In this document: positions 21,142-33,252 of the stretch, piece after piece | Numbering within the stretch: the first letter of the stretch is position 1 | How the letters are laid out: every line of letters starts with the position of its first letter | NCBI GenBank assembly: GCA_019358915.1 | Contig: JAHHIM010000005.1 | Location: forward strand, 64,001 to 128,000 | DNA: 64,000 nucleotides | Origin: Trichormus sp. ATA11-4-KO1 | Lineage (GTDB): Bacteria; Cyanobacteriota; Cyanobacteriia; Cyanobacteriales; Nostocaceae | Direction: 5' to 3' | Notes under the pieces: model-generated | The model's input: the letters and a program-made list of their open reading frames with translations, nothing else | The model's database searches: none | What the model was told of the DNA's origin: nothing | Made by a program: the position numbers and the translations under genes

Positions 21142-21537
21142 TTATCCGTTGCTTTGTAAATATTCAATCGCCGCCTCTAATTTGGAGGGGTAACTTTCAG
21201 AAAATCTTTCAAACCAAAGTCCTTCTGGCGAGAAGGGATCTAATTTTTCTAACCATTCTTGTGCCTGATGTTTTAAAGCTTCTAGTTTTTTGGCTTGGAT
21301 TTGTACTTGTCTAATTTTTTCTTGTTCTAGTTCTTGCTGTCTTCTCAAATCCTCAGCTTCATCCTGTGCGGCGAAATCAGCTTTAACTTCTGCCAACAGG
21401 TTATCTACTATAGATAAAGATTTTGGTAGCTGTGGAGTCAATGATTTGGCTGTATTTGGTTGTGGTTGTTTTGCTGCGGGTGTTGCTTCATCATATTCAG
21501 CCTTGAGTTGAGCTAGCAGCTTATCAATAGAGTCCAT
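21142..21537 (-). CDS. Slr1339-like (salt-stress) family protein
   Basis: MDSIDKLLAQLKAEY, EGLWFERFSESYPSKLEAAIEYL. Confidence 0.7.
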   Translation of the reverse strand: MDSIDKLLAQLKAEYDEATPAAKQPQPNTAKSLTPQLPKSLSIVDNLLAEVKADFAAQDEAEDLRRQQELEQEKIRQVQIQAKKLEALKHQAQEWLEKLDPFSPEGLWFERFSESYPSKLEAAIEYLQSNG

Positions 21538-21564
21538 TATGCTAAATCTTAATAACAGCGATCG

Positions 21565-22170
21565 CTAGTCAGTGATGGCATTCAGCAAGATTTCTGATAG
21601 GCTGTAATCTTCCATATCGTCCATGGTAATGGTGTCACAGATATCAAATTTAGCCCCAGCACTTTGCATTTCGTCATCCAAGACTTTGAGAAAGCGGGTA
21701 GCTTGCTGATCTGTGCCAACTTGAATAAAGGAAATGCCTAATTCTTCATCTCGATCCATCCGGCGAGACGCTTCAATAATTACCTTCATTACTGCTTTGC
21801 GATCGTCTGGTTCACCATCAGTAACAACTAAAATTGTTTCACCATTCGGTTTGGTTTGACCCGCACCTTTACGTTGAAAGTAATCATCTGTTGCGTGTTT
21901 TAACACAGCAGCTAAATCTGTAGTTCCAGCAGGATCATTTTCTTTAAATATTTGTCCTACCTTACTAGCTGTGACATTTTCATAACGTTTGAATCTACCA
22001 GAAAATAAATAAACAGTGATGCCATCAGGATCATATTGTTCGCACTTACTAGCTAAGGCTAAGGTAGATTCTTGTGCTGCTACCCATCTGCTTCTACCAC
22101 CTTTTTGATCTGGGGTGGCCATGCTACCACTTTTGTCGATAATCAAGGTGTAATCTCGATTTTCTAGCAT
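21565..22170 (-). CDS. vWA domain protein (paralog 2)
   Basis: DKSGSM MIDAS motif, VTDGEP. Confidence 0.9.
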   Translation of the reverse strand: MLENRDYTLIIDKSGSMATPDQKGGRSRWVAAQESTLALASKCEQYDPDGITVYLFSGRFKRYENVTASKVGQIFKENDPAGTTDLAAVLKHATDDYFQRKGAGQTKPNGETILVVTDGEPDDRKAVMKVIIEASRRMDRDEELGISFIQVGTDQQATRFLKVLDDEMQSAGAKFDICDTITMDDMEDYSLSEILLNAITD

Positions 22171-22226
22171 TTTCCAGGCTCCAGTTATTTAGTTAATAGC
22201 CAATATTGAATAGATTCTGGACTGAT

Positions 22227-22832
22227 TCAATCAGTAATTGCATTCATCAATACATCTGCCAGACTCATATCTTCTAAGTCATCTAAGGTGACGGTATCAC
22301 AAATATCGAATTTAGCACCAACACCTTGCAACTGCTCATCTAAAGCTTTGAGAAACTTAGTAGCCTGGGGATCTGACCCGACTTGAATTAAGGAAATTCC
22401 CAATTCTTCATCCCGTTCCATCTGGCGAGTAGCTTGAATAACTACCTCAAATACTGCTCTGCGATCGTCTGGTTCACCATCAGTAATCACTAAAATTGTC
22501 TCGCCATTGGTTTTAGTTTTACCTGCGGCTTTGCGTTGAAAGTAATTATTAAGTGCATCTTGAAGTACACCTGCTAAGTTTGTTGTGCCAGCAGGGTCAT
22601 TTTCTAAAAAAATTTGCGCGACTTTGGCGGAGGTAACATCGTCATAGCGTTTAAATCTGCCAGAAAATACATAAACAGTAATACCATCTGGGTCAAACTG
22701 TTCGCATTTTCTGGCTAAAGCAAGAGTAGACTCTTGGGCTATTTCCCATCGACTTCTACCACCCACTTGGTCAGGGGTAGACATACTACCACTTTTGTCA
22801 ATGATTAATGTGTAGTCGCGATCGCTCATCAT
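22227..22832 (-). CDS. vWA domain protein (paralog 1)
   Basis: DKSGSM MIDAS motif, ITDGEP; tandem duplicate of the neighbour. Confidence 0.9.
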   Translation of the reverse strand: MMSDRDYTLIIDKSGSMSTPDQVGGRSRWEIAQESTLALARKCEQFDPDGITVYVFSGRFKRYDDVTSAKVAQIFLENDPAGTTNLAGVLQDALNNYFQRKAAGKTKTNGETILVITDGEPDDRRAVFEVVIQATRQMERDEELGISLIQVGSDPQATKFLKALDEQLQGVGAKFDICDTVTLDDLEDMSLADVLMNAITD

Positions 22833-23371: not shown

Positions 23372-23593
23372 TCATGCTGATTTATTACTCTTTTTACTTG
23401 TGGGTGAGGATGAGCTTTTCTGGGAATTTGGCAGTTCTATCTCATTTTTCGCTAACCAATCTTCAATCAATTCTGCTGAAACGTCAGACATATTCAGTCC
23501 TTTAAAAAAACAAACTGTTTTAAACCTGTCTTTTGTTTCAGGGGGCAGGTAAACCCGAATCGAAGCTTCTCCTTGTGCCACACTATACTCCAA
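23372..23593 (-). CDS. Small ribbon-helix-helix (ParG/CopG-like) DNA-binding protein
   Basis: SIRVYLP beta strand followed by ETKDRFKTVC..GLNMSDVSAELIEDWL helices. Confidence 0.75.
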   Translation of the reverse strand: MEYSVAQGEASIRVYLPPETKDRFKTVCFFKGLNMSDVSAELIEDWLAKNEIELPNSQKSSSSPTSKKSNKSA

Positions 23594-23654
23594 CGAATAA
23601 ACTTATTCACTAGTTTATTGGTGTAATGGTTCATCGAGAAAAATTATACATTGG

Positions 23655-23684
23655 TTGACTAATGCACTAGTGCATTGGTATAGT
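23655..23684 (+). promoter_or_regulatory. Sigma70-type promoter with a 16-bp perfect palindrome in the spacer
   Basis: TTGACT (23655-23660), AATGCACTAGTGCATT (23661-23676), TGnTATAGT extended -10 (ends 23684). Confidence 0.7.
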
Positions 23685-24070
23685 ATCACCTATGCCCAAA
23701 GAAAGAGTCACAACTCTACCTCAAGAATGACACGCAACAAAGGCAATAGACGCCAGAAAGTGTCAGGACGGGCAGACATATAGAATAAGAGTAAAAGCGG
23801 TCAATTTTGCCTAAAATTGGCTTAATTAAGCATGAAATAAGACAAAAATAGATGATGATTTGCCAAAAGATTAGATGGAAAAAAATAAATAAAAGTTTCT
23901 AGTGAGTTACTCTAGCCTTTCAACTCTTTGAGAGTTAGAGCCACTTAACTACAAGCCAAACAAGAAACCACATTTTGCACCAGCTTCAGAAACTCAGTTT
24001 TTCCGACCTAATCGTTCAGTATAAAAAAACCCTTTAAATTCAGTCATTTAGGATATTTAGGTACTTAGGG

Positions 24071-25138
24071 ATGCTCAAAAACTTCTGGTATGCTTGTGAA
24101 TTTAGCTCAGCTGTTACCAACCAGCCCAAGCGAATTGTGATGTTAAATCAGAAATTTGTCCTCTATCGTAATTCTCAAGGGCAAGTAGTAGCACTGAAAG
24201 ACCAATGTTCCCATCGTGGTGCAGCATTATCTATGGGTTGGATAGAAGACAATTGTATCCGTTGCCCCTATCATGGATGGAAATTTCAAGCTGATGGGAA
24301 ATGCCTGGAAATCCCTTCCAATGAAATTGACATGCCCATCCCTAAAAGAGCTAATATCAACAGTTACCCAGTACAGGAAAAATATGGTTTTATCTGGCTA
24401 TTTTATGGAGAATTACCGACACAAAAGTGTCCACCAATTCCTCCCTTGCCAGAATATGAAGACCCCAACATGCATCCTATTTATGTAGAATACGAGATGA
24501 AATCTCACTACACTCGTGTCATCGAAAATGCTCTTGATCCGGCTCATCTTTATGCAGTCCATGCTAATTCCTTCGGAGCAGGATTTGCACAAGATCCAAG
24601 AGTTGAAGACTATGTAGTTGAAAATGAAGATTGGGGTATAAGTACTAAAATCATCTACAAGAATTACACTAAACCTAAAAATGGCATATTTAAATCATTT
24701 TTTCGCCCAAAAAAGACACAGTTAAATGCCAAAATTTGCTTTTACCCTCCTAACATAACTAAATTTGAAAGTGACTTTGGTCGTGGCAAAATTATTAATT
24801 ATGCCATCCACATTCCTGTTGATGATCATACGACCATTAGTAAGCGCATCCAATTACGTAATTTCTTCACCTATTCTTGGGCAGATAACTTATTTGTGAA
24901 GTTTCACCATAAAGTAGGTTTAGAAGATAAAGTAGTAACTGAGTCTCAATATCCCAAGTTGATACCTGACACTTTATCAACGGAAGTTCATGTTCCTGCT
25001 GATGCTTTAACTCTGGCTTATCGACAGCTGCGTCAAAAATATTTAGCTATGGGCTGGGGTTTGCAATCTCATAAAAATAAATCAGACAATTGTCACCAAA
25101 ATCAAGCACGACCTATTTACACCTCATTGATGAACTAA
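24071..25138 (+). CDS. Rieske non-heme iron oxygenase alpha subunit (paralog A)
   Basis: CSHRG..CPYHGW Rieske ligands; ENALDPAHLYAVH mononuclear Fe motif; C-terminal ED. Confidence 0.93.
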   Translation: MLKNFWYACEFSSAVTNQPKRIVMLNQKFVLYRNSQGQVVALKDQCSHRGAALSMGWIEDNCIRCPYHGWKFQADGKCLEIPSNEIDMPIPKRANINSYPVQEKYGFIWLFYGELPTQKCPPIPPLPEYEDPNMHPIYVEYEMKSHYTRVIENALDPAHLYAVHANSFGAGFAQDPRVEDYVVENEDWGISTKIIYKNYTKPKNGIFKSFFRPKKTQLNAKICFYPPNITKFESDFGRGKIINYAIHIPVDDHTTISKRIQLRNFFTYSWADNLFVKFHHKVGLEDKVVTESQYPKLIPDTLSTEVHVPADALTLAYRQLRQKYLAMGWGLQSHKNKSDNCHQNQARPIYTSLMN

Positions 25139-25273
25139 ATTTATAGCTTCTACAGGGTCGTTTTGACGGAAATAATTCCTGCTTCACCATCTATTGTGTT
25201 GATGGAAAGCTTTTGAGTGCAAGTTGGTATGAAATCGCCAAGACAACATATCTAAAAAGAATCGGAGACAAAT

Positions 25274-26341
25274 ATGTTGAAAAACTTTTGGTATGCTTGT
25301 GAATTTAGCTCGGCTATTACCAATAAGCCTAAGCAAGTTGTCATGTTTAATCAGAGATTTGTCCTGTATCGCGACTCTCATGGAAAAATCATCGCGTTGC
25401 AGGATCAGTGTCCCCATCGTGGTGCTGCTTTTTCTCTTGGTTGGATTGAAAAAGATTGTATTCGTTGTCCCTATCATGGATGGAAATTTCAAGCTGACGG
25501 GAAATGTGTAGAAATTCCTTCTAATGCACATGGAACTCCTATCCCCAAAAAATCTCGTGTAGATAGCTACCCAGTCAAAGAAAAGTATGGTTTCGTCTGG
25601 CTATTTTATGGGGACTTACCAGAAGCAGAACGTCCTCCCTTGCCAACTTTTCCCGAATACATGGTCGAGACCATGCGTCCTGTTTACGATGATGGGATAG
25701 ACCATGCTAACTATGCTCGTCTCATGGAAGCTAATCTTGATTTTACTCATGTCATAGCAGTCCATAGAAAATCTTTTGGTCAAAGAATCCCTATCAATAA
25801 AACTATCAATTATCAAGTTGATAAATACGATTGGGGTGCAGTTGCCAAAGTTAATTATGAGTCCTTAGGTAATTCCAAAAGTTTCTTAAACTTTTTACTT
25901 GGTGGACGCCCCGAATTAAAGACAAAATTGACCTTGTATCTGCCCAATGTTACCCTCGCAGAAATTAATGTAGGTAGAGGTGGCAGATTTGATATTAAGT
26001 TTGGAATTTTAGTTGCCCACTTGCCCATTGATGAAAATACCACTCGTGTAAAACGCGTTTTGTATCGCAATATTTTACCCGTACCTTGGTTAGATGGTTT
26101 TTTTAGGAAAATTGACCACAAACTTGCTCAAGAAGACACCGTAGTAGTAGCAACTTTAGATTCTCAACCAATGCCAAAAATATCAGATGAACTTCATGTT
26201 GCTGCTGATGCTTTGGATATTACTTTTCGTAAGTTTCTGCAAAAATCTCAGGCTTCATTTTCTGAGTCGAACCTGGATAACCAAAACCACCTTGTTCATG
26301 AATCTTCAAAACTAGTTCATGTGATAGGTGACAGGGGATAG
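25274..26341 (+). CDS. Rieske non-heme iron oxygenase alpha subunit (paralog B)
   Basis: CPHRG..CPYHGW; EANLDFTHVIAVH; QED. Confidence 0.93.
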   Translation: MLKNFWYACEFSSAITNKPKQVVMFNQRFVLYRDSHGKIIALQDQCPHRGAAFSLGWIEKDCIRCPYHGWKFQADGKCVEIPSNAHGTPIPKKSRVDSYPVKEKYGFVWLFYGDLPEAERPPLPTFPEYMVETMRPVYDDGIDHANYARLMEANLDFTHVIAVHRKSFGQRIPINKTINYQVDKYDWGAVAKVNYESLGNSKSFLNFLLGGRPELKTKLTLYLPNVTLAEINVGRGGRFDIKFGILVAHLPIDENTTRVKRVLYRNILPVPWLDGFFRKIDHKLAQEDTVVVATLDSQPMPKISDELHVAADALDITFRKFLQKSQASFSESNLDNQNHLVHESSKLVHVIGDRG

Positions 26342-26427
26342 GGAAAGAGATTTTCCTCTGATTGCGGAATTATTGGTAAAGCAACAGACATACATAGACG
26401 TACTTCATCAATAGTGGGGAGATAAAT

Positions 26428-27432
26428 ATGACTGATGTCCTAGAAAGAACAGTGACACAACAACCAACAATGCGTGGGGTAATAGACAAGATTTTCAGAC
26501 AGATGTTTGAAAATACTTGCCAAGCACTGGTAGCTATGGATGGTAAAGAGCTTCGTGAACAGTCCTGGAATCGAGATCAAAAGGGCATCTGGACAGTTGG
26601 TAAAAGTAGTGAAGATGCTATCTATATTGATCGTGCGTTGCACAATGGCAATGTCTTTGAAAAGATGGGAGCCAACTATGTAGCGATAGAGGGTGAGTTA
26701 CCTCCGGGAATGTCTTTTCAGCAATCAGGTGCGCTGGCTACAGGTGCAGCAGATCAAATGATTACGACTAGAGGTAATCGCTTCTTCGCCACAGGTTCTA
26801 GCTTTGTGATTCATCCCCACAACCCGATGGCACCGACGGCGCATGTCAACTACCGTTATTTTCAAATTAGTAACGGCAATCAACCTGTTTATTGGTGGCT
26901 TGGCGGCGGCGCAGACCTGACACCGGCATACCTATTTGAGGAAGATGCAGTGCATTTTCATCAGGTGCATAAAGAGGTTTGTGACAAGTACGATCCTGCT
27001 TATTACCCACGTTTTAAAAAGTGGTGTGACGAGTACTTCCACATCCCACATCGAGCTGAAAGCCGGGGTATAGGGGGAATTTTCTTCGACCATCTCAATA
27101 ACGGCAATCCTCAAAAACTGCTGTCATTTGTGACAAATTGTGCTGATGCTTTTATTCCTGCCTATCTGCCGATTGTCGAAAGACGTAAAGATATGTCCTT
27201 TACAGAAGCAAATAAGAATTGGCAACATCTGGTGCGGGGGCGCTATGTGGAATTTATCTTGTCCTGCGATCGCGGCATCCGTTTTGGTTTAGCCAGTGGT
27301 ATGGTGAAGCAGCAAAGTGTGTTTAATTGTATGCCTCCTGCTGCTAGCTGGGAATATGACGATCAACCTGTCCCTGGTAGCAAAGAAGCGATGCTCAAAG
27401 AAGTTTTGCAAAATCCTCGAGATTGGCTATAA
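26428..27432 (+). CDS. hemF: Divergent oxygen-dependent coproporphyrinogen III oxidase paralog (HemF2-like)
   Basis: IHPHNPMAPTAHVNYRYF, GGGADLTP, FKKWCDEYF, RGIGGIFFD, RGRYVEF..DRG..FGL; several non-canonical substitutions. Confidence 0.88.
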   Translation: MTDVLERTVTQQPTMRGVIDKIFRQMFENTCQALVAMDGKELREQSWNRDQKGIWTVGKSSEDAIYIDRALHNGNVFEKMGANYVAIEGELPPGMSFQQSGALATGAADQMITTRGNRFFATGSSFVIHPHNPMAPTAHVNYRYFQISNGNQPVYWWLGGGADLTPAYLFEEDAVHFHQVHKEVCDKYDPAYYPRFKKWCDEYFHIPHRAESRGIGGIFFDHLNNGNPQKLLSFVTNCADAFIPAYLPIVERRKDMSFTEANKNWQHLVRGRYVEFILSCDRGIRFGLASGMVKQQSVFNCMPPAASWEYDDQPVPGSKEAMLKEVLQNPRDWL

Positions 27433-27498
27433 ATTTGCCGAGCCTGATCATTTGAATTAAGACAATTGAACATAGCAAATAAGATAGTCATACTTGAG

Positions 27499-27717
27499 AT
27501 GAGAAAAACAAAATCGCTGAACACAAGGCAATCTAAAGCCAAAAGTACGTTTCAACAGCCACTACCAATAATGGCAAATAGTTTTACTTCTTACAAAACA
27601 AGAAGGTACAGACACACTACAAGTGAACTGGAAATAGATATTGCCTTATCTTGTCTTAATGCTTGTAAGTATGTGCTGATTTGGATAATTGGCCTTTGCT
27701 TGTATTCGAGCATGTAA
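27499..27717 (+). CDS. Possible small membrane protein
   Basis: Short ORF within the cluster with a hydrophobic C-terminus; no recognisable motif. Confidence 0.3.
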   Translation: MRKTKSLNTRQSKAKSTFQQPLPIMANSFTSYKTRRYRHTTSELEIDIALSCLNACKYVLIWIIGLCLYSSM

Positions 27718-27802
27718 ATACTACTCCTCTTTTGTTTCAAGAATACTTATTTCAAGTAACCACAAATACACAAAGGAAAATTAGGTGTAGGAAAAGATAA
27801 CA

Positions 27803-28429
27803 ATGAGCATGGAAACTGAACTGGTTACAGGCAATCTTCGCATGGAAGATATCATCAATCTAGATGAATCAAAAGCCATGAATTTGTTTAGGAAGAGATT
27901 TCAAAGATACAAAAAGCTGGCAGAGGAAATAGGAGATGCAGCCGCTTTTGAAAAGATGATGGAAAAATATCCTGAACAACAAAAGGCGTTGATGGGTACT
28001 TTCATTGATCACAATACTCTAGCGCAAGGTTTCCAGGAAGCTGCTCCTTTGTTAGGATTGATGGGTTTTGTCATGGATATAGTAGATGTCTCGCAAAACG
28101 GGACAGATGCAGCATTAGAAATTCAAAGGGTTTGCCCAGTTTTATCTATCGCTAAAGAATACGGTTTTGATCAGCCGTGTCGTGTTTTTTGTGAGATGGA
28201 ACAAGAAGCGACTAGAAGAGCTTTTCCTGGGATAAAAGCTGCGATTTTGAGTAAACAAGCAGAAGGAGACTGTGTTTGTGTATTTAAGTATGAAAGATTG
28301 ACTAATCAGTCGTTAATCTCAAATACACAAACATCAAGTTTAATACATGGTTTTTTGACTTTAATTGGACTAATTCCCAACTTGCTTAAGATTGGTGTCA
28401 AGATGGTCAAATTGCGGTTATTTAATTAA
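27803..28429 (+). CDS. L-2-amino-thiazoline-4-carboxylate (ATC) hydrolase-family protein, TolI-like
   Basis: CP..C..FCEME..GDCVCVF Cys pattern typical of the ATC-hydrolase/V4R-like fold; amphipathic C-terminal tail. Confidence 0.65.
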   Translation: MSMETELVTGNLRMEDIINLDESKAMNLFRKRFQRYKKLAEEIGDAAAFEKMMEKYPEQQKALMGTFIDHNTLAQGFQEAAPLLGLMGFVMDIVDVSQNGTDAALEIQRVCPVLSIAKEYGFDQPCRVFCEMEQEATRRAFPGIKAAILSKQAEGDCVCVFKYERLTNQSLISNTQTSSLIHGFLTLIGLIPNLLKIGVKMVKLRLFN

Positions 28430-28589
28430 TTGCAATTAGCAATTTTGGCAAGTATTTAGTTTGTAGCCGTTGCCAAAATAATTCACTAATAAACATAAGC
28501 AACGGCTTGATAAATCATTTTCAAAAACATTTATTTCTCATCTCTCCGTGTACTCTGTGTCTCTGTGGTTTTATTAAAACTTTAAACTT

Positions 28590-30005
28590 ATGAACAGCAT
28601 TATTTCAGATTTAAAACAAATTATTGCAGGTGAAGTTAGTAACTTAGAAGCAGAATTAGCAGCAGTTTCTCAAGATTTTGGTGGCATTATTCAAAAACGA
28701 CCTCAAATTGTAGTTCGTCCGCAAAATTCTACTGATGTTGCTCAAGTAATTCAGTATGCTGCTAAACAAGGATTAACTGTTTCGTCACGAGCTGCGGGAC
28801 ATTCACTAGGTGGTCAATCTTTGAATCAAGATGGAATTCTTTTAGATATGCGGAATCTCAATCAAATTCACGAATTCCGTCCCGATGAACTTTGGTTTAA
28901 AGCTGATCCTGGTGTGACGTGGAAGCAGGTAGTTGATATTTCTATACCTCATGGTGTAATTCCGCCTGTACTCACAAATAACTTTGAGGTTACTTTGGGA
29001 GGAACTCTATCTGCGGCTGGTTTAGGCTTGAGTTCTTTTCGTTATGGTTCTCAAGCTGATAATTGTTTGGGTTTGGAAGTTGTTACTGGTACAGGAGATA
29101 TTGTCTGGTGTACACCAGAAGCAAATAGTGAACTTTTTTATCATGTGCTTTGTGGTTATGGGCAGTTTGGCATTATCACGAAAGTTCAAAATCGCCTGAG
29201 AAAATATCGTTCTTACACTCGCAGTTATTTTCTTTGCTATGACGATTTAGATACTCTTTTAAATGATGAGCGTCGCCTTGTTTCTGAAGGTTGTATTGAT
29301 GGTTTAGTATCTTTGTTCTCTCCTTGCCTACTAGGAATGTCTAGGCTAGAAACGAAGATTAAACCCCTAATTCAGTGGTTTTACAGAATGCAAATTACTT
29401 TAGAAGTGGATTCTGTTAATGATATAAATGAAGAAAAATTGCTTTCTGGTTTAAATTTTTATCGTCACATCCACACCGAAGACCTAACTTTTGATAAATT
29501 CATTCAACCAATGGGGCAAGTATCTCATCCTGTAGGTACTGCTAACACCTGGATAGATATTCTTTTACCAGGAGCAAAGGCAAAAGAATTTATCGATATT
29601 GCGCTTCAGTACATACCTTCCTTTATTGACTTCCGAACTATACCTGTAGGTTCCTTTTGTCTTAATTCTCGCAATCATCAAACGCCCATGTTTCCTTTAC
29701 CAGAAGATGATTTAATTATCGGGTTAGGTATGTATCCAACTATCCCTAAATCTCAGCTTAAACCTGTGCTAGAGCAATTAAATCTACTCACTGATCTGGG
29801 CTTCCAAATGGGTGGCAAAAGATATATGGCTACCTGGGTAGAATTTGACCTACCAAGATGGCGACTGCAATTCGGTGATTACTGGCCTAAAGTCAATGAA
29901 ATGAAAAGGAAATATGACCCTCATGGGATACTCAATCCTGGTTTCTTCAAGTATGAACAGGTTGAACAGGCGAATCTCAAAAGTATTTATGTCCCGTCCC
30001 ATTAA
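28590..30005 (+). CDS. FAD-linked oxidoreductase (VAO/PCMH family, cytokinin-dehydrogenase-like)
   Basis: RAAGHSLGGQS (covalent FAD His), TLGGTLS.AG.G, GQFGIIT, C-terminal KYDPHGILNPG. Confidence 0.9.
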   Translation: MNSIISDLKQIIAGEVSNLEAELAAVSQDFGGIIQKRPQIVVRPQNSTDVAQVIQYAAKQGLTVSSRAAGHSLGGQSLNQDGILLDMRNLNQIHEFRPDELWFKADPGVTWKQVVDISIPHGVIPPVLTNNFEVTLGGTLSAAGLGLSSFRYGSQADNCLGLEVVTGTGDIVWCTPEANSELFYHVLCGYGQFGIITKVQNRLRKYRSYTRSYFLCYDDLDTLLNDERRLVSEGCIDGLVSLFSPCLLGMSRLETKIKPLIQWFYRMQITLEVDSVNDINEEKLLSGLNFYRHIHTEDLTFDKFIQPMGQVSHPVGTANTWIDILLPGAKAKEFIDIALQYIPSFIDFRTIPVGSFCLNSRNHQTPMFPLPEDDLIIGLGMYPTIPKSQLKPVLEQLNLLTDLGFQMGGKRYMATWVEFDLPRWRLQFGDYWPKVNEMKRKYDPHGILNPGFFKYEQVEQANLKSIYVPSH

Positions 30006-30020
30006 TCAGGCGTAAAAACG

Positions 30021-31241
30021 ATGTTGCGAAATTCTGAGGAAATGAAGAAATCATCTCTATTTCCTACTAATTTGCGTTGGTTAGCTGCTGTGGGTATTAC
30101 CTGTATGATGGCGATGGGAGCGGGAGTAGTATATGTCACTCGTCCACCAGCTACTACGAAAAATCCAGTCGTCACTGCACAAGTGAGCCAACCAGTTATT
30201 CCCAAGGTGAATGCATTAGGAAGATTAGAGCCAGCAGGTGAAGTAATTAAGATTTCGGCTCCAACTAATCCCAGTGCTGGTAGTGGTAGCCGTGTTACTC
30301 AATTGTTAGTTGAGGAAGGTACGCAGGTACGAGCAGGACAGACGATCGCCATTTTGGATAATCGCGATCGCCTACAAGCTAATTTAAAAGAAGCACAGCA
30401 GCAAGTCCGAGTGGCTCAATCCCGACTGACTCAAGTCAAAGCCGGGGCCAAACAAGGTGAAATAACCGCTAGACAAGCAACTGTGAGCAATCTGCAAGCA
30501 CAGTTAGATGGTGAAATCCAAACCCAACAAGCTACTATTGCTCGCTTAGAAGCAGGGTTACAGAACGCAGAGATAGAATTTCGCCGCTATGAAAGTCTTT
30601 ATCAAGAAGGCGCGATCGCGGCTGCGGATCTCGATGGTCGGAGATTAACTTTAAGAACCGCTCAAGCAGAATTGAATGGTGCTAAAGCCAGCTTACAAAG
30701 AACACAACGCACCATCACAGCCCAAATTCAAGAAGCCAAAGCCACCTTGGAGCAAACAGCAGAAGTGCGTCCTACAGATATAGCCACAGCACAGGCAGAA
30801 GTAGATAGTGCGATCGCCTCAGTTGAGAAAATGCGAGTTGAACTCGACTCAGCATATATTCGCGCCCCAAAAGCAGGTCAAATTCTGCGAATTCAAGCTC
30901 GTCCCGGCGAAACTATCGATGAAGCAGGAATTGTCGAACTTGGTCAAACAGAGCAAATGTATGCTGTAGCTGAAATCTACGAAAGTGATATCGCTAAAAT
31001 TCGCCCTGGTCAAACTGCCAGTATTACTAGTCCTAGCAATGCCTTTGAGGGTAAGTTAAGCGGCACAGTTGATCGTATTGGTTTAAAAGTGGCGAAAAAA
31101 GATGTCTTAGACAGCGACCCCACGGCGGCCACAGATGCCAGGGTAATTGAAGCCAAAATTCGTTTAGATCAAACAGCAAGCCAGCAAGTGGCTAACTTTA
31201 CTAACCTTCAAGTCAATGTCGAAATAGTCATTGGTCAATAG
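30021..31241 (+). CDS. DevB-family ABC exporter membrane fusion protein
   Basis: VNALGRLEPAGEVI, coiled coil, IRAP..GQIL, AVAEIYESDI, DARVIE, NLQVNVEI. Confidence 0.92.
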   Translation: MLRNSEEMKKSSLFPTNLRWLAAVGITCMMAMGAGVVYVTRPPATTKNPVVTAQVSQPVIPKVNALGRLEPAGEVIKISAPTNPSAGSGSRVTQLLVEEGTQVRAGQTIAILDNRDRLQANLKEAQQQVRVAQSRLTQVKAGAKQGEITARQATVSNLQAQLDGEIQTQQATIARLEAGLQNAEIEFRRYESLYQEGAIAAADLDGRRLTLRTAQAELNGAKASLQRTQRTITAQIQEAKATLEQTAEVRPTDIATAQAEVDSAIASVEKMRVELDSAYIRAPKAGQILRIQARPGETIDEAGIVELGQTEQMYAVAEIYESDIAKIRPGQTASITSPSNAFEGKLSGTVDRIGLKVAKKDVLDSDPTAATDARVIEAKIRLDQTASQQVANFTNLQVNVEIVIGQ

Positions 31242-31322
31242 TCATTGGTCATTGGGTATTGGTTATTTCCCCCACTCCCCTGCTCCCCTGCTCCCCCACT
31301 CCCCCACTCCCCCATCCCCCAT
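31228..31322. repeat. STRR arrays (GTCATTG and CCCCACT/CCCCTGCT) in the devB-devC spacer
   Basis: Direct reading; explains the spurious Pro-rich N-terminal extension of the 31245 ORF. Confidence 0.85.
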
Positions 31323-31328
31323 CCTCTC

Positions 31329-32486
31329 ATGTTCAAACCCAAAATCCCCTTGGCTTGGCGGCAACTAATGAAACAAAAAGGGCGGTTTCTCGTTGCCCTT
31401 TGTGGAATTACATTTGCCGATTTTCTCATGTTAATGCAGTTGGGCTTTCAGTCGGCTTTATATGATAGTAATACCCGCTTTCATGAACTTTTACAAGCAG
31501 ATTTAGTATTAATGAGCCGCCAAGGGCAAAATCTAGGATTACTCAGTAGTTTTCCTCGTCGGCGGTTGTTTCAAGCTGCTAATCTATCTGAGGTTGAGTC
31601 AGTTAATCCTTTGTATATTCGTATAGGAGTTTGGAAAAGTCCCCAAACTAAGTTAGATGAATCAATTTTAGTAATCGGCTTTAATCCAGAAAAACCTGCG
31701 TTTAATTTACCAGCAGTCAATCAAAAATTAGATCAGATTAAATATCCCAACACACTGTTATTTGACCGTAACGCCAACGGGAAATATGAACAGGCGATCG
31801 CTCAAATATCTGAAGGTAAACCTGTCACGACAGAACTGCAAGGACGTAAAGTTAAAATTGGCGGTTTGTATGAGGTTGGTGCATCTTTTGTAGCTAATGG
31901 CAGTGTAATTACTAGTGACCAGAACTACTTGCGAATTTTTTCGGCACAGCAACCAGGTAACGTCAACCTGGGTTTAATTAATCTTAAATCGGGTAGTGAT
32001 GCTGATGTCGTTGCTCAAGCATTACGGTCTTATCTTACGGATGATGTAAAAGTTTTTACCCGTCAAGAATTTATTGATTTTGAAAAAAAGTATTGGCAAG
32101 AAAATGGCGCGATTGGTTTTATCTTTTCCTTGGGTGTCACCATCGGATTTTTGGTTGGCGTGATTATTGTTTATCAAATTATTTATAGTGATGTGATGGA
32201 TCACTTGCCTGAATACGCCACACTCAAGGCAATGGGTTATCGTAATACTTATTTATTATTTGTGGTGTTGCAAGAGGCATTAATTTTAGCGATATGCGGT
32301 TTTATTCCTGGTGGTTTCGTTTCTTTTTTCATGTATGGCTTCACCAGAAACGTCACTAAATTACCACTATTTATGACTTATGCACGGATAATACAAGTTT
32401 TGATATTAACAATTATTATGTGTTTGATTTCTGGCGCGATCGCTATGCGGAAGTTAAACTCGGCAGACCCAGCAGATATTTTTTAA
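31329..32486 (+). CDS. DevC-family ABC exporter permease
   Basis: PLAWRQL, GITFADFLMLMQLGF, HLPEYATLKAMGY, ADPADIF; start placed at MFKPKIP. Confidence 0.93.
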   Translation: MFKPKIPLAWRQLMKQKGRFLVALCGITFADFLMLMQLGFQSALYDSNTRFHELLQADLVLMSRQGQNLGLLSSFPRRRLFQAANLSEVESVNPLYIRIGVWKSPQTKLDESILVIGFNPEKPAFNLPAVNQKLDQIKYPNTLLFDRNANGKYEQAIAQISEGKPVTTELQGRKVKIGGLYEVGASFVANGSVITSDQNYLRIFSAQQPGNVNLGLINLKSGSDADVVAQALRSYLTDDVKVFTRQEFIDFEKKYWQENGAIGFIFSLGVTIGFLVGVIIVYQIIYSDVMDHLPEYATLKAMGYRNTYLLFVVLQEALILAICGFIPGGFVSFFMYGFTRNVTKLPLFMTYARIIQVLILTIIMCLISGAIAMRKLNSADPADIF

Positions 32487-32673: not shown

Positions 32674-33252
32674 ATGAAGCTTTTGTTAACTGGTACGTTT
32701 CTAGGTACAGCGATCGCACTGTCACCTTTAGCGGCTAATGCGGCAACTTTTTCTTTCACCAGTGTATTAAATGGTGATCAAGAAGTTCCCTCTATCAGTA
32801 CATCTGGTGTAGGTACGGCGACGGGTACACTTAGTGGTGGCCCCGGTAGCTGGGTTTTTGACTATGTGGTCAATTACTCTGGTTTGCAGGGTACCATAGC
32901 AGCTCCATTTGCACATATCCATAACGCCCCAGCTGGTCAAAATGGCCCTGTTGTTCACGATCTGGATAATGCCACTCTTCCTCCGATTGCAGGTAGCAAT
33001 TCGGGGACAATTACGGGAGATTGGCGTTTTGATGATGTTACCAATCCCTTGACAGATGTATTAGCGCAGGAACTGTTGAGAGGTAATGCCTACTTTAATC
33101 TGCACACAACCACCTTCCCTAGTGGTGAGATTCGTGGGCAAATTGTCCCCGTCCCTGAACCTACATCAACGTTAAGCTTATTGACACTTGGTGCTTTAGG
33201 TGCAGCCTGGCAATGGAAAAATCGCAAAAATCAGCAGAAATTAATCGGCTAA
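32674..33252 (+). CDS. CHRD domain protein with PEP-CTERM sorting signal
   Basis: Signal peptide (ANA), AHIH.AP.GQNGPV, YFNLHT..FPSGEIRGQI, VPEP + TM + basic tail. Confidence 0.92.
   Translation: MKLLLTGTFLGTAIALSPLAANAATFSFTSVLNGDQEVPSISTSGVGTATGTLSGGPGSWVFDYVVNYSGLQGTIAAPFAHIHNAPAGQNGPVVHDLDNATLPPIAGSNSGTITGDWRFDDVTNPLTDVLAQELLRGNAYFNLHTTTFPSGEIRGQIVPVPEPTSTLSLLTLGALGAAWQWKNRKNQQKLIG

Follow-up and report, generated by a model that had tools for sequence, protein, structure and literature searches.

A compact cassette of nine genes, spanning about 9 kb in the cyanobacterium Trichormus sp. ATA11-4-KO1, encodes what we hold, with a modest lean in its favor, to be a minimal tolyporphin pathway, in which a pair of Rieske oxygenases replaces the cytochrome P450 (P450) TolH and a sugar-free pigment of the tolyporphin P, Q or J type is exported. 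The cassette lies in the window, a stretch of 64,000 nt (JAHHIM010000005.1, positions 64,001-128,000, forward strand) to which the coordinates below refer; the host genome (5.97 Mb, completeness 99.89%) belongs to the same family as the named Nostocales tol loci. A divergent ribbon-helix-helix (RHH) gene precedes eight co-oriented genes on the plus strand. A sequence-only reading of this DNA had described seven co-oriented open reading frames (ORFs), and all seven are present on the plus strand where it had placed them, with the domains it had named: Rieske plus VanA_C in two proteins, Coprogen_oxidas, FAD_binding_4 plus a cytokinin-dehydrogenase domain, DevB (TIGR02971) and DevC (TIGR01185). 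The ATC_hydrolase score of the 27803-28429 product, at 26 bits, falls slightly under the cut-off of 28.1. Two genes had been missed, the RHH gene (23372-23581, minus strand) and a small ORF (27499-27717, plus strand), and the locus had been treated as singular, when it is instead a widespread conserved cassette. Purifying selection acts on all nine genes, with median dN/dS values of 0.095-0.17 across the seven large ones (measured against 21-23 compact loci).

The core of the pathway rests on orthology to enzymes with assayed functions. HemF2 decarboxylates the two remaining propionates (rings C and D) of protoporphyrinogen IX and TolI removes the four vinyl groups (PMC10459692, PMC10548856), the latter being released as acetaldehyde, and the two enzymes alone yield tolyporphin P in E. 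coli (PMC10459692). The HemF protein of the cassette (26428-27432, plus strand) is a HemF2, that is, a non-canonical porphyrinogen oxidative decarboxylase. A tree of 83 HemF proteins divides into a HemF2 clade of 68, the window protein among them, and a HemF1 clade of 15, to which the second copy of the genome (contig C1) belongs; the split has a support of 100 in a quick IQ-TREE run, the careful search being incomplete. Window HemF2 is 58% identical to its counterpart in biosynthetic gene cluster 1 (BGC-1) of strain HT-58-2, 72% to that in BGC-2 and 63% to that of Oculatella, but only 39% to the housekeeping HemF of its own genome, in keeping with the separate clade, the identity of about 38-41% to the canonical enzyme and the coexisting canonical copy by which HemF2 is recognized. 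This placement, together with the separate canonical copy, rules out that the gene is the housekeeping one. Residues R143, D281 and R282 are kept.

The protein encoded at 27803-28429 (plus strand) is an orthologue of TolI, the Fe-S vinyl-cleaving enzyme, as had been proposed: it is 59-60% identical to TolI of BGC-1, 66% to that of BGC-2 and 61-62% to that of Oculatella, an enzyme whose activity has been assayed. Both points on which the sequence-only reading had staked its case at the sequence level thus came out in its favor, HemF being neither the housekeeping nor the only copy and the 27803-28429 protein being related to TolI. Four cysteines (C111, C126, C130 and C159) are invariant in 25/25 TolI sequences and have matching positions in Oculatella TolI; the ligands of the Fe-S cluster are presumably to be sought among them. 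A predicted C-terminal helix (residues 169-207) fits the amphipathic tail of about 41 residues, so that both hallmarks of TolI, cysteines for an Fe-S cluster and the tail, are found. A structural model of TolI bears a weak likeness to the V4R/H-NOX/TRAPP fold (Z 6.5-9.3), with weak matches to MopR/V4R, BcsD and H-NOX (Foldseek E 7e-3; Z 9.3, rmsd 3.5, 135 aligned residues), and a PDB sequence search with the TolI alignment gave zero matches at E up to 1. The fold resembled by the model (27803-28300) includes heme-binding H-NOX domains. Next to tolI lies the FAD oxidase gene (28590-30005, plus strand), whose product is an orthologue of TolJ (58% identity to BGC-1, 75% to BGC-2 and 70% to Oculatella) and a cytokinin dehydrogenase-type (VAO/PCMH) flavoprotein; its best PDB matches are cytokinin dehydrogenases (E 2e-42). 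The GHS motif at H71 is found in 51/67 homologues, and the histidine is replaced in some TolJ proteins. TolJ is likely a macrocycle or carbinol oxidase. The cassette therefore holds tolI and tolJ together, one of the features by which a tolyporphin cluster is defined (PMC8401325).

How might such a pathway oxygenate its product? The series opens with two Rieske non-heme iron oxygenases, HcaE1 (24071-25138, plus strand) and HcaE2 (25274-26341, plus strand). Duplicate hcaE genes are known in HT-58-2 BGC-2, Oculatella and FACHB-892, where their role is stated as unknown (PMC8401325). The first cassette protein is 62% identical to the first copy of BGC-2 and likewise 62% to that of Oculatella, and the second is 73% and 66% identical to the respective second copies; neither has a counterpart in BGC-1. 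The two proteins fall into separate old clades, HcaE1 with the first BGC-2 copy and HcaE2 with the second (support 99 for HcaE2), so that the orthology is one-to-one. HcaE1 conserves the Rieske ligands C46/H48/C65/H68 and the iron ligands H159/H164/D286, and HcaE2 the same set with D288 as the aspartate; their dN/dS medians are 0.13 and 0.10. The sequence-only reading had pointed to tetrapyrrole-acting Rieske oxygenases of the PaO/CAO group, but the cassette proteins are not of the PaO type: neither copy matches the PaO domain PF08417 at E up to 1, whereas two other Rieske proteins of the genome carry it (110 and 86 bits), and the missing domain together with the distance from these proteins in the tree excludes a PaO-type identity in favor of orthology to the published hcaE genes. 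By its model, HcaE2 has DdmC, SxtT, GxtA and NdmA as closest folds (TM about 0.7). The best NCBIfam model for the Rieske proteins is the methyl-oxidising SdmA, at 121 bits against a cut-off of 600, and CAO is not among their PDB matches, no named CAO sequence having been compared directly.

The association of these oxygenases with the core is close. Among 389 genomes of the family, the Rieske type occurs in 74, this type together with tolI in 66, tolI alone in 5 and Rieske alone in 8. Within 10 kb, 67/68 tolJ loci have either a Rieske gene (62) or P450 genes only (5); the one exception is a locus truncated 1.4 kb upstream. Moreover, FACHB-892 and Stigonema ocellatum bear tolD and Rieske genes without a TolH-type P450, which suggests that Rieske enzymes can supply a glycosylation-ready intermediate.

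As the sequence-only reading had held, the cassette is devoid of glycosyltransferase, acyltransferase, P450 and early hem genes. Measured against the published description of tolyporphin clusters (PMC8401325), it contains only hemF2 of the clustered hemABCEF genes (the genome has hemA, B, C, E, L and F as scattered single genes on other contigs), neither tolD nor tolB (tolB having been searched within the cassette only) and neither of the P450s TolG and TolH. It does carry devB and devC near its end, as described there. In the whole genome, no orthologue of TolD (best match 24%), TolC (best match 27%) or TolH was found, none of the six P450s falling in the clade of 16 cluster P450s (support 100). 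A TolD search at E 1e-20 covered 50 genomes of unstated completeness (50 of the 70 cyanobacterial loci); it found TolD in 0/25 compact genomes, and 7/25 other genomes have it at an identity of at least 60%. The BGC-2 P450 as query had no match at E 1e-150 in 24/25 compact genomes, the remaining one having a 50% match. The cassette thus works like a tolyporphin cluster but departs from three published defining features (hem genes, tolD and P450), and is a variant, not a member.

The compact form is common. A TolI scan of species-representative genomes with a 25-sequence alignment led to 78 fetched loci, among them HT-58-2 BGC-1 (L043) and BGC-2 (L039), Oculatella LEGE 06141 (L068), Nostoc FACHB-892 (L024) and 106C (L063); in L043 the positions of tolI and tolJ coincide with those published (PMC10459692, Table 10). 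The order Rieske-Rieske-hemF2-tolI-tolJ(-devB-devC) recurs in 24/78 loci and in one truncated locus (L020), from Nodularia, Anabaenopsis, Umezakia, Chrysosporum, Halotia, Komarekiella, Dendronalium and other genera. The flanks differ between these genera, so that the earlier description of the locus as lying between core loci is only loosely true. TolI occurs in 71/389 family genomes, 34 of them at an identity of at least 71%, the band in which the inspected loci (25) are compact, and in 6/401 genomes of a much diluted order-wide sample. Only 9/71 tolI loci have a glycosyltransferase gene within 10 kb.

We envision that HemF2 and TolI, judged by orthology, would convert protoporphyrinogen IX of the housekeeping route to the bare tetramethyl tolyporphyrinogen P, that the two Rieske enzymes probably then oxygenate pyrrole beta-carbons, installing beta-oxo and hydroxyl groups in place of TolH, which gives a hydroxy-oxo (hydroxy-ketone) product (PMC10459692, PMC10548856), that TolJ probably completes the oxidation and that DevBC probably exports the sugar-free P, Q or J-type pigments. 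The sequence-only reading had concluded that the product should differ from known tolyporphins, but this does not follow, because HemF2 and TolI give P, and the added groups of Q and J are limited to hydroxyls; none of the three needs a sugar or acyl gene (PMC10459692).

Several observations weigh against this pathway. Nine loci hold both two Rieske genes and a TolH-clade P450, so the two oxygenase types are not simply interchangeable. The solved structures closest in fold to the Rieske proteins are those of C-H monooxygenases. Sister Rieske genes with 46-51% identity to the tol type occur as a pair without any tol gene, so that the family is not confined to tetrapyrroles. The genome of S. ocellatum was binned from a metagenome, and its missing P450 may be an assembly gap; related loci are not independent observations. 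Window HemF2 has Val269 where that of BGC-1 has arginine, a position at which Val, Met, Ile or Thr stands in place of Arg in 49/68 HemF2 proteins. Co-expression of TolJ and HemF2 alone gave no product (PMC10459692), and we found no report of HcaE or TolJ activity in the literature covered. Finally, three assays detected no tolyporphin in three other cluster-bearing strains, Oculatella with its Rieske genes among them, although these assays target oxo species and so would miss P (PMC8401325).

Alternatively, the same stripped core might lead to a new end product, a tetrapyrrole unlike known tolyporphins, if the Rieske enzymes oxidise methyl groups to hydroxymethyl, formyl or carboxyl groups, in the way of CAO and SdmA with their own substrates, or if Val269 HemF2 leaves a propionate in place. 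Such a product would be consistent with the folds closest to HcaE2 and with SdmA as best model (though far below its cut-off), with the Rieske genes standing alongside a TolH-clade P450 in nine loci, with the frequent replacement of Arg269 and with an exporter of another DevC lineage. We nevertheless find it rather doubtful, because this Rieske pair and a Val-type HemF2 are both found in HT-58-2 BGC-2 as well, and still none of the 18 known tolyporphins has lost its methyl groups or retains a propionate (PMC10459692), unless BGC-2 is silent; moreover, tolD genomes without a P450 suggest that what the Rieske enzymes produce enters the usual route. A related and equally tentative idea is that heterocyst formers such as Nodularia, Anabaenopsis and Umezakia represent a large, overlooked branch of tetrapyrrole natural products, in which the Rieske pair and TolX, as a small membrane subunit, convert the bare tolyporphyrinogen scaffold to an exported, sugar-free pigment with an oxidation pattern outside the 18 tolyporphins. 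If this were true, glycosylated tolyporphins would be the minority variant.

Could the cassette serve disposal rather than synthesis, stripping surplus photosensitising porphyrinogen, opening the ring and exporting a linear tetrapyrrole? PaO-type Rieske enzymes do open tetrapyrrole rings, an exporter is present and early hem genes that would raise the flux are missing, but the missing PaO domain, the distance from the PaO-type proteins of the genome and the hem genes in most other tolI loci, which point to synthesis, make this improbable. Completion by a Tol-type P450 or TolD in trans is ruled out by the absence of such orthologues from the genome. More broadly, the cassette might be only a core, with P450s or glycosyltransferases elsewhere completing glycosylated products, and the genome does encode six P450s, five of them 35-50% identical to Tol P450s, and one family-1 glycosyltransferase; given the P450 clade that excludes all of these P450s, the best TolD match of 24%, the near absence of both functions from compact genomes and the high completeness of this one, we consider it marginally less probable than disposal. 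Least probable of all is that the substrate is not a tetrapyrrole or that the locus is a silent relic. We found no pigment report for these genera, and related clusters appeared silent in culture (PMC8401325), but purifying selection on nine genes, a conserved promoter block, intact catalytic residues and orthology to porphyrinogen-assayed enzymes speak against both possibilities.

The minimal pathway would also include a protein that had escaped notice. Between hemF2 and tolI, the small ORF (27499-27717, plus strand) encodes a basic protein of 72 residues, here called TolX, with the motif E-I-D-I-A-L...K/R-Y and a C-terminal hydrophobic helix. Its profile matches 68/71 cyanobacterial tolI loci, the window included, and in the remaining three genomes TolX has another position (following devC in BGC-1, following hemF2 in 106C and preceding tolI in the genome of L069); two genomes without tolI gave no match. 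The reading frame is interrupted by stops in 0/58 sequences (those of the 68 matches that could be anchored on the motif), as against 58/58 and 54/58 for the other plus-strand frames, and pN/pS is 0.20 over 25 compact loci. This conserved frame rules out that the gap between hemF2 and tolI is non-coding. The family comprises 39 clusters at 50% identity, all of 36-106 residues, and has no Pfam family and no usable match in an Atlas search; a complex prediction for TolX with HemF2 and TolI scored 0.00 with an uncertain partner fold and carries no weight for or against such a complex. From its hydrophobic helix and its neighbors, TolX is likely a membrane-bound accessory, either an anchor or an export accessory. 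It accompanies every cyanobacterial tolI examined but is missing from the tol gene lists consulted (PMC8401325, PMC10459692); it does not figure among the genes given for the published reconstitution, where it may matter.

At the other end, the divergent gene (23372-23581, minus strand) encodes a ParG-like RHH protein of 69 residues with a GTG start (Pfam ParG, 22.4 bits against a cut-off of 21.4). It is 79-100% identical in 24/24 loci with the same gene order, with a pN/pS of 0.145 and 0 stops in 25 sequences, and Oculatella and several Nostoc loci likewise have a tandem-RHH gene placed divergently upstream of their hemF2. Judged from this arrangement, the RHH protein is likely the regulator of the cassette, and the region 23582-23700 likely a shared divergent promoter that it binds. 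The sequence-only reading had proposed a promoter and operator, of which the motifs fared poorly and the region well. Of 12 consensus matches, TTGACT-18-TATAGT (23655-23684) is the best, but the scan alone is no evidence for a promoter, because shuffled sequences give 27; a terminator scan was similarly at or below chance counts. The genome contains 190 perfect 16-bp palindromes; the one at 23661-23676, AATGCACTAGTGCATT, a candidate RHH operator set among short ACTAGT-like repeats, is exact in only 6/78 loci and degenerate in most, and a genome scan with the repeated operator unit found 6 scattered sites besides that of the cassette. What does support a functional region is that an intergenic block of about 140 nt aligns gap-free in 25/25 compact loci (window included), with GTTGACTAAT invariant. 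If the regulator acts as envisioned, its gene offers a route to switch on seemingly silent clusters.

Export would depend on a DevB-family membrane fusion protein (30021-31241, plus strand; TIGR02971, 361 bits; dN/dS 0.15) and a DevC-family ABC permease (31329-32486, plus strand; TIGR01185, 491 bits). The devC gene had been given a TTG start at 31245, but the stretch this adds consists of a C-rich repeat, and the ATG at 31329 gives 385 residues, the length of most orthologues, which makes it the most likely start. Short C-rich tandem repeats that resemble cyanobacterial STRR elements lie between devB and devC (31240-31328). By sequence, the cassette DevC is of a lineage other than that of HT-58-2 (46% identity), being 64-67% identical to DevC of Mastigocoleus, Richelia and Scytonematopsis clusters. 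No devA lies in the cassette here; an ABC ATPase follows devC in 11/25 compact loci, and in the present case the ATPase may come from a different DevBCA operon.

Directly downstream on the same strand, a gene for a CHRD-domain PEP-CTERM protein (32674-33252) is probably not part of the cassette, because it is seen in no other tolI locus. Upstream (21142-22832) lies a tandem pair of vWA genes, shared only with L001, together with a small coiled-coil gene. In Nodularia, Anabaenopsis, Umezakia and their kin, the cassette adjoins PRK-family kinase and ATP-grasp genes (L002, L004-L006, L008, L009, L011, L013, L015, L016, L053 and L064); such constancy of position suggests that it was inherited vertically. 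In most of the other tolI loci hemA is present, frequently accompanied by hemE, hemC and hemB. A second sugar-free architecture in Nostoc (L046-L048, L050-L052, L054-L060 and L067, the last on a plasmid) has the order divergent tandem-RHH, hemF2, tolX, tolI, tolJ, hemA, single Rieske, then hemE, hemC, hemB, hemF1 and devB, with a heme-oxygenase-like gene co-oriented with the RHH gene. L066 (6086-8800) and L089 have divergent hemF2 and tolX, with two tandem tolI in L066 and no tolJ or oxygenase nearby, and L031 has only hem genes, hemF2, tolX, tolI and hemA; these three loci may stop at tolyporphin P. Short TolI-like proteins, found in deltaproteobacteria and other cyanobacteria (L071-L078 and the order-wide matches), are 43-52% identical over residues 26-165 and have no C-terminal tail; in L077 the gene lies near a hemF gene on the opposite strand. 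The eight tolI-free Rieske loci that were fetched comprise six with the pair around a membrane protein of about 215 residues, one bare pair and one single gene. This sister cassette (L079:8023-10883, L080-L083, L085 and L086), whose membrane protein has no Pfam family, sometimes includes an MFS transporter.

A 2023 review lists HT-58-2 as the sole known tolyporphin producer and eight cluster-bearing strains, and leaves the function of the pigment open. With the hemF2-tolI core in 71/389 genomes of one family, a supposedly rare pathway is considerably widened, and a 9-kb cassette in ordinary cultured genera makes the roles of HcaE and TolJ, P450-free oxo installation and the purpose of the pigment directly testable. 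A literature search, with subscription journals and preprint supplements outside its reach, found no paper on the compact form, nor any relevant one on Rieske enzymes with tolyporphin or on Nodularia with a porphyrin cluster.

How does the cassette compare with known systems? VanA_C-type Rieske oxygenases (DdmC, SxtT, GxtA, NdmA and phthalate 4,5-dioxygenase) share the fold as well as the Rieske and 2-His-1-Asp ligands of its Rieske proteins, but are only about 22% identical to them, and substrate and chemistry are therefore not transferable. Cytokinin dehydrogenases match TolJ over its full length and share the GHS motif, from which some TolJ proteins depart. BGC-1 of HT-58-2, from which Ushimaru et al. 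in 2023 reportedly drew the HemF2, TolI and TolH assignments, resembles the cassette in its HemF2, TolI and TolJ (58%, 59-60% and 58% identity) but has TolX downstream of devC, two P450s and no Rieske gene, a HemF2 with Arg269, and hem, sugar, acyl and glycosyl genes. Closest are the clusters of HT-58-2 BGC-2, Oculatella LEGE 06141 and FACHB-892 (PMC8401325), which have the same hemF2-(tolX)-tolI-tolJ order, one-to-one counterparts of the duplicate hcaE and DevBC nearby; identities to BGC-2 proteins reach 62-75%, and the Oculatella cluster also has a divergent RHH gene. Compared with these clusters of 23-30 kb, the cassette of about 9 kb is without tolD, tolC, tolH, sugar-pathway genes or hemA/B/C/E, places the Rieske pair first, and has a single-domain RHH regulator and a DevC of the other lineage.

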